64,000 nucleotides of DNA from positions 91,567 to 155,566 of the forward strand of contig CAWDLS010000014.1 of the NCBI GenBank assembly GCA_963803275.1. The letters run 5' to 3'. Shown here in pieces: positions 43,472-46,720 of the stretch (within the stretch, counting starts at the first letter, position 1; every line of letters starts with the position of its first letter). Made by a program: the position numbers and the translations under genes. This DNA is from an uncultured Gammaproteobacteria bacterium. Its GTDB lineage: Bacteria; Pseudomonadota; Gammaproteobacteria; UBA9214. The notes beneath the pieces were generated by a model that saw only the letters and a program-made list of their open reading frames with translations, searched no databases and was not told the origin of the DNA.

Positions 43472-44038
43472 ATGGCACGGCTCATTCTGGAACCCACAAC
43501 CATTGCACAGTGGCAGAAACTGGTACAGGAGGCGCAGACCGCGTGCGACCGCAATATCGGCGAAACGCTGGAAAGCTACCTGGTGTTCCTGCTCATGCGC
43601 TTTAGCGACCGGCCACAGTGCACGGCGCGCATCATGGCGCAGGATTTTCTAGAGTCGCAGCACCTGTCCGGTGCGCATCGCATCGATCGCCTCCGTGAAG
43701 TCGGTGACCACTGCCTGCTGTTTTCCGGCCTGTTCCCGCAGCTGGCCGAACGACGCCTGGTACGCATCAGCTACTTCGTGAATATCGGGCGCGACTCGTA
43801 CCGGCAGTTGTCCGATGTGCTGGACCGCGGGTGGGCAAGTGTCTACGGGCATCTTTCAGATGCCTTCATCATACTGATGGATATCCTGCATGCGATGCGT
43901 GAACTGGGCGGAGAGCCGCTGCTGACGCCGATCCAGGCCATGGAATTGTGGCAGGAGACAGGCAGCCGCCGCTGTTACCGGCAGGTCTGCAAGGACGGCC
44001 ATGCCACGCCCATTACCGGCAACCTCGAAACCCACTGA
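43472..44038 (+). CDS. Hypothetical protein (188 aa)
   Basis: It is an intact ORF transcribed divergently from glyQ. I recognise no family. Confidence 0.4.
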
Positions 44039-44262
44039 ATCCCTGCTCTTATTTTCATTTCTTAGCTGTGCATGGGTTAGAATGCCCGGTAATGTGACGG
44101 GCTGATTCCTGCCGCAGGGAAGCAAGGGTCACGAGCAATCGCTATCAGTACCTGAAACCGGCAACCGTATCGAGCCCTTGTCACGCGGAAAGTTGCATTG
44201 ACTGTATTCCCGGGCCGGTCCGCGCGCTGCCCGATCTCGCGGCGGTTCATCCCGGCAATTGT

Positions 44263-45327
44263 TTGTCCCGACAGCAGCGTATCATGATTGTTCCACGTAA
44301 AGCCGTTGCACTGATATCCGGAGGACTCGACTCCTTGCTCGCCGCGCGCGTCGTCCTGGACCAGGGCGTGCATGTCGAGGGCATCAATTTTTTTACCGGT
44401 TTCTGTGTCGAGGGCCATACACACGCCATACGCAGGCAGGACCGCGATCGTCCGAAGCGCAACAACGCACTGTGGTCGGCCGAACAACTCGGCATCAAGC
44501 TGCACATCGTCGACATCATCGACGAGTACAAGGATATCGTGATCAATCCCAGGCACGGTTACGGCGCGAACCTCAATCCGTGTCTGGACTGCAAGATCTT
44601 CATGGTCAACAAGGCGCGTGACTGGATGGATGCGCACGGTTTCGATTTCATCATCACCGGCGAAGTCATCGGGCAGCGGCCGATGTCGCAACGCAAGGAC
44701 ACCATGCCAGTGGTGGCGCGCGACTCGGGTGCCGGGGACCGTCTGGTGCGTCCGTTGTGCGCAAAAAACCTGCCGCCCACGCTGCCCGAGCGGGAAGGCT
44801 GGCTGGATCGCGAGCGACTGCACGGATTCAGCGGGCGTTCGCGCAAGCCGCAAATCGCACTCGCGGCAGGCTACGGTATCGAGGACTTCGCGCAGCCGGC
44901 CGGCGGTTGCTGCTTTCTCACCGACCGGCAGTACGCCGTCAAGCTGGAGGATCTCTGGAAAACCCGCGGCAGGCGTGACTACGAACTCGATGACATCATG
45001 CTGCTGAAGGTCGGCCGCCACTTGCGCCCGCGTCCACATTTCAAGATGATCGTCGGGCGCGAGGAAGGTGAAAACCATTTCCTCGAGGGTTACCGGAAAC
45101 GTTTCGTGCACATGTTTCCAAGCAGCCACACTGGTCCGCTGGTGCTGCTTGATGGTGAAGTAAGTGCGGATGACATCGAGCTCGCCGCGCGCCTGACCGC
45201 GCGCTTCAGTAAGGGACGTGACGCTGCCCGGGTGACCGTCGAGATATGTGACATGACAGGGTCAACGCGAACACTCGACGTCGAGCCAATGCGGGTCGGA
45301 CAGATTCCGCAGGGCTGGTATCTGTGA
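44263..45327 (+). CDS. MnmA-family PP-loop ATPase (tRNA 2-thiouridylase-like)
   Basis: The PP-loop is AVALISGGLDSLLAARVVLDQGVHVEG. The candidate catalytic cysteines NPCLDCK and AGGCCFL align with E. coli MnmA Cys102 and Cys199 blocks. It is 354 aa. An alternative start lies at M8 (44284). Confidence 0.7.
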   Translation: MSRQQRIMIVPRKAVALISGGLDSLLAARVVLDQGVHVEGINFFTGFCVEGHTHAIRRQDRDRPKRNNALWSAEQLGIKLHIVDIIDEYKDIVINPRHGYGANLNPCLDCKIFMVNKARDWMDAHGFDFIITGEVIGQRPMSQRKDTMPVVARDSGAGDRLVRPLCAKNLPPTLPEREGWLDRERLHGFSGRSRKPQIALAAGYGIEDFAQPAGGCCFLTDRQYAVKLEDLWKTRGRRDYELDDIMLLKVGRHLRPRPHFKMIVGREEGENHFLEGYRKRFVHMFPSSHTGPLVLLDGEVSADDIELAARLTARFSKGRDAARVTVEICDMTGSTRTLDVEPMRVGQIPQGWYL

Positions 45328-45557
45328 GTATTCGCATTATCGACGCCCGCAACCTGTTGTGTCCCATGCCGGTGATACGAACTCAGGATGCGGTTGCCAA
45401 ATGCCGTCCGGGCGACGAACTGCAGGTGCGCTGTACGGACCCCGGGGTGGTACACGATATCCCGGCCTGGTGTCGCGTGCACGGTCACCTGGTGCGCGGG
45501 ATTGTACGCGAGGATCGCGAAATCATTATCGATATCACCGTCGGTAAGTCTGATTAG
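45324..45557 (+). CDS. tusA: TusA-like sulfur carrier protein with a GTG start overlapping the upstream stop
   Basis: The CPxP motif (LLCPMPVI) is present. It is 77 aa and translationally coupled (GTGA overlap) to the MnmA-like gene. Confidence 0.8.
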   Translation: MSIRIIDARNLLCPMPVIRTQDAVAKCRPGDELQVRCTDPGVVHDIPAWCRVHGHLVRGIVREDREIIIDITVGKSD

Positions 45558-45562
45558 GCACC

Positions 45563-46720
45563 ATGGGCCAGACACTCCTGCCTGATCCGCGCAACCTGCG
45601 CTATCGCGAAATACGCAAGGTCACGCTGATCGGTTCCGTCGTTGATCTGATACTTGGCGTAGTGAAAATCATGATCGGTCTGGCCGCCGGTTCGGAGGCG
45701 CTGATTGCCGACGGCGTGCATTCACTGTCGGATCTGGCGACGGATTTCCTTGTGCTGTTTGCGGCCAAGCACGCCCACCGGGAGGCCGATGAGGATCATC
45801 CCTATGGCCACGGACGTATCGAAACGGTCGCGACCGTGGCGCTGGGCGTTACGCTGGTGATTGTGGCGGTCGGTATCAGCATCGATGCCTTCAGTCGCAT
45901 GTCCTCCGGGGAGAGGCTGCTGCTTCACGGCAGCTGGGCACTGTTGATAGCGCTGATATCGGTCGTCTCCAAGGAAATAATCTACCAGTACACAGCGCGC
46001 GTGGCGCGCCGCCTGCGTTCCAACATGCTGCATGCGAACGCCTGGCACAGTCGCAGTGATGCGATTTCGTCGATCATCGTGGTCATCGGTGTCGGCGGTG
46101 CCATGGCGGGGTATACCTATCTGGACGAGGTCGCCGCGATCGCTGTCGCACTGATGATCGCCAAGATCGGCTGGGACCTGTTGTGGACGAGTCTGCAGGA
46201 ACTCATCGACAAGGCGCTGGAGCCGGAACTGGTCGAGGAAATCCGCCGGGCGATCCTCGGCGTGGGTGGCGTGCGCGCCTGTCACATGTTGCGCACGCGC
46301 ACCAGCGGCAGCGATTCACTGGTCGATGTGCATATCCAGGTGGACCCCACCCTGAGTGTTTCGGAAGGTCACCAGATCGGCGAGCGGGTACGCCGGCAGC
46401 TAATCAGTGAAGTCGAACACGTCGCCGATGTCACCGTCCACATCGATCCCGAGGATGACGAGCAGGCCTCGCCCTGCGACCAGCTGCCGTTGCGCGACGA
46501 GGTGCTGCGCCGTCTCAGGCAGGAATGGCAGGGGCTGGATCACGAGCAGTGGCTCGACAGGGTCGTGCTGCATTACCTGGACGGCAGGGTGCACGTGGAC
46601 GTGTTCGTGCGCAAGGGCGATTTGTCTGCGGAACGGCTGGACAGGCTGGCCGGTGCGATCCGCGAGCACGCCGCACGTGCTGAAGATATTGGCGATGTGC
46701 AGGTGTACACAGGCGAATAG
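45563..46720 (+). CDS. Cation diffusion facilitator (CDF) family metal efflux transporter with an extended C-terminal domain
   Basis: Six transmembrane helices carry the CDF signature (HSLSDLATDF, HAHREADEDHPYGHGRIE). A ~80-aa C-terminal extension appears to duplicate the cytoplasmic domain. Confidence 0.8.
   Translation: MGQTLLPDPRNLRYREIRKVTLIGSVVDLILGVVKIMIGLAAGSEALIADGVHSLSDLATDFLVLFAAKHAHREADEDHPYGHGRIETVATVALGVTLVIVAVGISIDAFSRMSSGERLLLHGSWALLIALISVVSKEIIYQYTARVARRLRSNMLHANAWHSRSDAISSIIVVIGVGGAMAGYTYLDEVAAIAVALMIAKIGWDLLWTSLQELIDKALEPELVEEIRRAILGVGGVRACHMLRTRTSGSDSLVDVHIQVDPTLSVSEGHQIGERVRRQLISEVEHVADVTVHIDPEDDEQASPCDQLPLRDEVLRRLRQEWQGLDHEQWLDRVVLHYLDGRVHVDVFVRKGDLSAERLDRLAGAIREHAARAEDIGDVQVYTGE

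Follow-up and report, generated by a model that had tools for sequence, protein, structure and literature searches.

Burroughs and Aravind (2014; RNA Biol 11:360, PMC4075521) described ThiI+NFACT-R (DUF814) fusions with a neighbouring TusA and predicted that they constitute an alternative tRNA 4-thiouridylation pathway. TusA was the sole conserved neighbour in their survey, and the family was recorded in "some gamma-proteobacteria". The family-specific motifs are GRxRxxQ and TxxE, and a CxxC, an internal cysteine and two NFACT-R arginines are also conserved. The NFACT-R_2 domain of these fusions lacks the DxxxH of NFACT proteins and carries the two conserved arginines instead. The key argument of that study was that ThiI+NFACT-R and THUMP-ThiI are mutually exclusive across genomes. 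Our literature search found no experimental study of any ThiI+NFACT-R member.

Among other PP-loop sulfurtransferases, a CxxC motif plus one further cysteine is an experimentally established [4Fe-4S] ligand set, both in archaeal TtuI (PMC9825150) and in C-type MnmA (PMC7025502). Here, we compare these systems with a locus found in the window, that is, the whole 64-kb stretch of DNA that was analysed.

Architecture and family identity of the enzyme

The locus is situated among housekeeping genes, near dnaA, gyrB, glyQS and glnA, and all the features described below are on the forward strand. The enzyme gene (44284..45327) encodes 347 aa from an ATG. The longest open reading frame (44263-45327) starts at a TTG and encodes 354 aa; because the family length is 347 aa, the ATG at 44284 is the likely start. 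The publicly annotated gene call is 330 aa, and its start falls within the PP-loop. The ORF coordinates and a motif search placed the four open reading frames, the PP-loop and the cysteine blocks where the initial annotation had put them.

We found that the C-terminal third of the protein (residues 244-346; 45013..45321) matched NFACT-R_2 (PF18297) in Pfam with an E-value of 1.9e-34. This domain is the predicted RNA-binding module and takes the place of THUMP. Residues 5-145 gave weak hits to the ThiI and MnmA HUP families (PF03054 HUP, 6e-9). Pfam gave no THUMP or rhodanese hit in the enzyme, which opens with the PP-loop at residue 12. A ThiI-type catalytic domain is present, and the N-terminal ferredoxin-like plus THUMP part is not. 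The middle region had been described as diverged, like the C-terminus, but it contains the ThiI-type motif TGEVxGQRPxSQ...RPL, which aligns to B. anthracis ThiI.

The conservation of these features was estimated from 74 diverse family members (36-64% identity), all 74 of which showed NFACT-R_2 with the weak ThiI/MnmA HUP pattern. Within the PP-loop SGGLDS (aa 12-17; 44317..44334), the ATP-binding/adenylation site, S12, G14 and D16 were invariant, and SGGxDS occurs only once in the whole window. N98, C100, D102 and C103 were also invariant; they belong to NPCLDC, in which C100-L-D-C103 forms the CxxC motif (44581..44592). The third invariant cysteine is Cys210 of GGC (44911..44913), and the adjacent Cys209 is not conserved. 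In the active-site loop, the GRxRxxQ motif reads GRSRKPQ (aa 184-190; 44833..44853), with G184 and R187 invariant and R185 and Q190 conserved in at least 90% of the members. The same level was reached by T166 and E169 of the TxxE motif (TLPE, aa 166-169) and by R259, one of the two arginines at the start of NFACT-R, the other one, R245, being invariant. All the family motifs published in 2014 are therefore present in the enzyme, invariant or nearly so.

An AlphaFold2 model of the enzyme was obtained with high confidence (pLDDT 95, pTM 0.91). The structure closest to its modelled catalytic domain was a ThiI-RNA complex, and the modelled C-terminal domain matched NFACT-R structures, a CCDC25-DNA complex among them. 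A sequence profile of the N-terminal 120 residues scored MnmA (8e-13) slightly better than ThiI (2e-10). Thus, the ThiI assignment rests mainly on the structure and on the middle-region motifs.

Judged by its sequence, the 347-aa enzyme is an ordinary member of the ThiI+NFACT-R family that was described computationally in 2014. Its architecture and its TusA neighbourhood are exactly those given by Burroughs and Aravind, and the pair itself is no new idea. The family is large, with about 880 clusters at 50% identity (E < 1e-30) and at least 7995 hits in a word-indexed search that scored up to 8000 candidates. The enzyme is 69-91% identical among many environmental gammaproteobacterial genera, which, together with the housekeeping surroundings, is consistent with a core translation-related function.

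Coupling to TusA and the predicted reaction

The gene directly downstream (45324..45557) starts at a GTG and encodes a 77-aa sulfur carrier. It matched PF01206 well above the cut-off (1.5e-19; 70 bits against 28.6) and has the CPxP cysteine, as had been proposed; the active-site residue is Cys13 in LCPMP (45360-45362). It scored 35.6 bits against the E. coli-type TusA equivalog NF001423 (cut-off 78), so by these profile scores the carrier is a TusA family member and not an orthologue of E. coli-type TusA. In an alignment of 76 orthologues, LCP.PVIR and DIPAWCR..GH were kept in at least 90% and the active-site cysteine was conserved.

The two genes share the four nucleotides GTGA, in which the TGA stop of the enzyme (45325-45327) overlaps the GTG start of TusA (45324); this overlap, already noted in the initial annotation, can be read directly in the sequence. 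We examined the pairing in 80 loci from related Gammaproteobacteria, all of which have the glyQ...glnA order. In 77 of them, TusA was the next gene downstream of the enzyme and had the same orientation, and an RTGA overlap, projected from alignments, was found in about 44 of these 77. The pairing of enzyme and TusA is far beyond chance. Outside this clade the adjacency is patchy (one of seven sampled distant members). In one distant relative (P0276) the enzyme carries TusA as an N-terminal fusion, and at the distant locus L087 TusA is upstream of the enzyme gene. A ferredoxin-like gene overlaps the distant homologue L086. No tusBCDE genes are adjacent to the enzyme locus. The earlier reading of a PP-loop thiolation enzyme coupled to a dedicated TusA-family carrier is thus retained, but the enzyme is ThiI-like with NFACT-R_2 and not MnmA-like.

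We consider it probable that the ThiI-like PP-loop and NFACT-R_2 enzyme, working with its dedicated TusA, makes 4-thiouridine, most probably at U8; formation of tRNA s4U8 is also the target predicted for the family. What we infer here are the substrate, the position that is modified, the path of the sulfur and the presence of an Fe-S cluster. A cysteine desulfurase encoded elsewhere would load a persulfide onto Cys13 of TusA, and NFACT-R would position the tRNA. With ATP, the PP-loop would then activate the target uridine by adenylation, most probably at O4 of U8. TusA would pass its sulfur to an active site made of Cys100-x-x-Cys103 and Cys210, where it is probably accepted by a [4Fe-4S] cluster, at the iron that the three cysteine ligands leave free. 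Finally, the sulfur would displace AMP and give 4-thiouridine.

The enzyme has the CxxC + C triad that characterizes the [4Fe-4S]-dependent PP-loop sulfurtransferases (TtuA/NcsA, C-type MnmA, archaeal TtuI and Fe-S LarE). By analogy, the invariant triad suggests a [4Fe-4S]-dependent mechanism, and C100, C103 and C210 are therefore predicted to form such a site, as in TtuI and C-type MnmA; the ferredoxin-like gene that overlaps L086 is in line with this. This is a concrete and testable addition to the 2014 prediction. If that prediction is true, the enzyme would be the missing tRNA s4U8 synthase in organisms without THUMP-ThiI, and the pair would be the first example of TusA directly feeding a ThiI-type enzyme.

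Another explanation is that the enzyme is a thiolase, probably Fe-S dependent, whose target is not tRNA U8 but lies elsewhere in tRNA or in rRNA, or is a small molecule derived from a nucleotide, as for LarE, and whose NFACT-R domain binds the substrate or a partner. The GRxRxxQ and TxxE motifs of the active-site loop, which are missing from canonical ThiI, may be explained in this way. So may the fact that an unrelated domain stands in place of THUMP, the domain that determines positions 6, 8 and 10 (PMC9825150). However, NFACT-R domains are nucleic-acid binders, as in the CCDC25-DNA complex and in RqcH, NEMF and Rqc2, which act on ribosomes with tRNA. In addition, the complementary phyletic pattern published for the family and THUMP-ThiI (PMC4075521) speaks for an identical product, and the nearest catalytic-domain structure is a ThiI bound to RNA. 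We regard this explanation as rather unlikely. A special form of it is doubtful, namely that a [4Fe-4S] RNA thiolase receives sulfur directly from the coupled TusA, with neither a TusBCDE relay nor a rhodanese domain, and is steered by NFACT-R to a non-predicted target (a site of no known enzyme, or a non-tRNA RNA). If true, a housekeeping modification enzyme would be hidden under the MnmA annotation in sulfur-oxidising and methanotrophic Gammaproteobacteria.

Neighbouring genes and the MnmA annotation

The gene after TusA (45563..46720) is separated from the TusA stop by 5 nt and encodes a 385-aa CDF-family divalent-cation transporter (TIGR01297, 247 bits, cut-off 82). Pfam found Cation_efflux (PF01545, 3.7e-47) and, at aa 220-297, ZT_dimer (PF16916, 1.2e-23). 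Of the specific CDF models, the highest scores came from those of three iron transporters (MamB, MamM and FieF), none of which reached its cut-off. The C-terminal extension of about 85 aa (aa ~300-385; 46460-46717) had been taken for an extra duplicated cytoplasmic domain. The extension itself is real and conserved: the loci yielded 56 related CDF proteins, and 55 of these have it nearly complete. Duplication was not demonstrated: Pfam gave no second ZT_dimer hit, and just one of 33 orthologous extensions gave a hit (E = 0.011). When the first cytoplasmic domain was compared with the extension, the E-value was 1.1 by BLASTP and 0.035 by hhalign (55-sequence alignments, probability 1.5%), the hhalign match being colinear over 64 columns. 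Searched as a profile against PDB and Pfam, the extension matched nothing.

Upstream of the enzyme, 245 nt from the ATG at 44284, is the gene of a conserved all-helical hypothetical protein of 188 aa (43472..44038). It was described as unrecognised, and our searches of Pfam, NCBIfam and PHROGs likewise found no family match.

One could suppose that the enzyme and TusA work as one unit with the transporter, and perhaps also with the 188-aa protein, to join the handling of iron or zinc with sulfur transfer. The spacing is tight (a 4-nt overlap followed by the 5-nt gap), the transporter gene follows TusA in 59 of the 80 loci, its top specific models point, below cut-off, to iron, and the enzyme is possibly Fe-S dependent. 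However, the transporter gene is missing from 17 loci with room for it, which keep the order enzyme-TusA-glnA, and the 188-aa gene is missing from 45. The transporter gene was found beside none of the seven distant members, and the published survey (PMC4075521) listed no conserved neighbour but TusA. Because all 80 loci are related and have a common gene order, the adjacency can be inherited synteny. A metal-handling unit is thus very unlikely. The transporter and the 188-aa protein are variable conserved-synteny neighbours in the gammaproteobacterial clade and not demonstrable components, and their membership in the thiolation system should not be assumed.

The public annotation names the enzyme "tRNA U34 2-thiouridine synthase MnmA/TrmU". 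Some similarity to MnmA does exist. The PP-loop SGGLDS was aligned by HMMER to that of E. coli MnmA, and equivalents of the catalytic pair Cys102/Cys199 are present, as the initial annotation had recognised from NPCLDCK and AGGCCFL: NPCLDC aligns to NPCVMC/NPDILC of MnmA, and GGCCF aligns, weakly and in a sub-threshold segment, with TGICF (Cys199). The best PDB match by sequence profile was also an MnmA (8e-13). E. coli TusA is a component of the s2U34 pathway. However, the enzyme was far below the cut-offs of the MnmA equivalogs in NCBIfam (NF001138, 39.8 bits against 284; TIGR00420, 34.1 against 236.95; NF011258, 26.2 against 680) and of the ThiI equivalog (TIGR00342, 35.7 against 264.5), that is, more than 200 bits short of both. 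A search for the MnmA central and C-terminal domains gave no hit, the middle region has GEVxGQRPxSQ and no MnmA-type GHY, and the full-length Foldseek TM against MnmA was just 0.37.

An MnmA orthologue was therefore rejected, given these scores and the NFACT-R_2 C-terminus seen in every one of the 74 members, and it is highly improbable that the enzyme is the organism's tRNA s2U34 synthase, fed directly through a shortened Tus relay by the TusA encoded next to it, even though PF03054 hits its HUP domain. An earlier suggestion, that the enzyme is a paralogue with another thiolation substrate, agrees with the evidence and with the 2014 prediction, in which the product is tRNA s4U8 and not s2U34. 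For the window, what this means in practice is that the annotation has to be corrected: the label mnmA does not apply to this gene. Almost all members of this large family carry the same mistaken MnmA/TrmU annotation.

Comparison with known systems

The enzyme and the ThiI+NFACT-R proteins of 2014 are identical in architecture, in the CxxC and internal cysteine, in GRxRxxQ and TxxE, in the two arginines and in TusA, and there is no essential difference between them. Our analysis adds to that picture the translational coupling of the TusA gene through a conserved RTGA overlap in the clade, the CDF gene that follows at roughly three loci out of four, and the reading of the cysteine triad as a probable [4Fe-4S] site, an idea later than the paper.

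Canonical ThiI/TtuI (T. maritima, 4kr6; B. anthracis, 2c5s) shares TGExxGQxxSQ...RPL with the enzyme, and archaeal [4Fe-4S] TtuI (PMC9825150) shares the CXXC + C triad. Unlike canonical ThiI/TtuI, the enzyme has no N-terminal ferredoxin-like, THUMP or rhodanese domain. Its RNA-binding module would be the C-terminal NFACT-R_2, and its predicted sulfur donor is TusA instead of a rhodanese domain or free sulfide.

With MnmA (E. coli, 2der/2det/2deu), which is served by the TusA-TusBCD-TusE relay, the enzyme has in common the PP-loop and a TusA-family partner. Its NPCxxC and GxCF are at the positions of Cys102 and Cys199, in a CxxC-C arrangement like that of C-type MnmA (PMC7025502). However, neither the central nor the C-terminal domain of MnmA is present, the MnmA equivalog cut-offs are missed by far, and there are no tusBCDE genes next to the enzyme gene. 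Compared with the NFACT proteins (RqcH/NEMF/Rqc2) and CCDC25, the enzyme is without the NFACT-N, HhH and coiled-coil parts.

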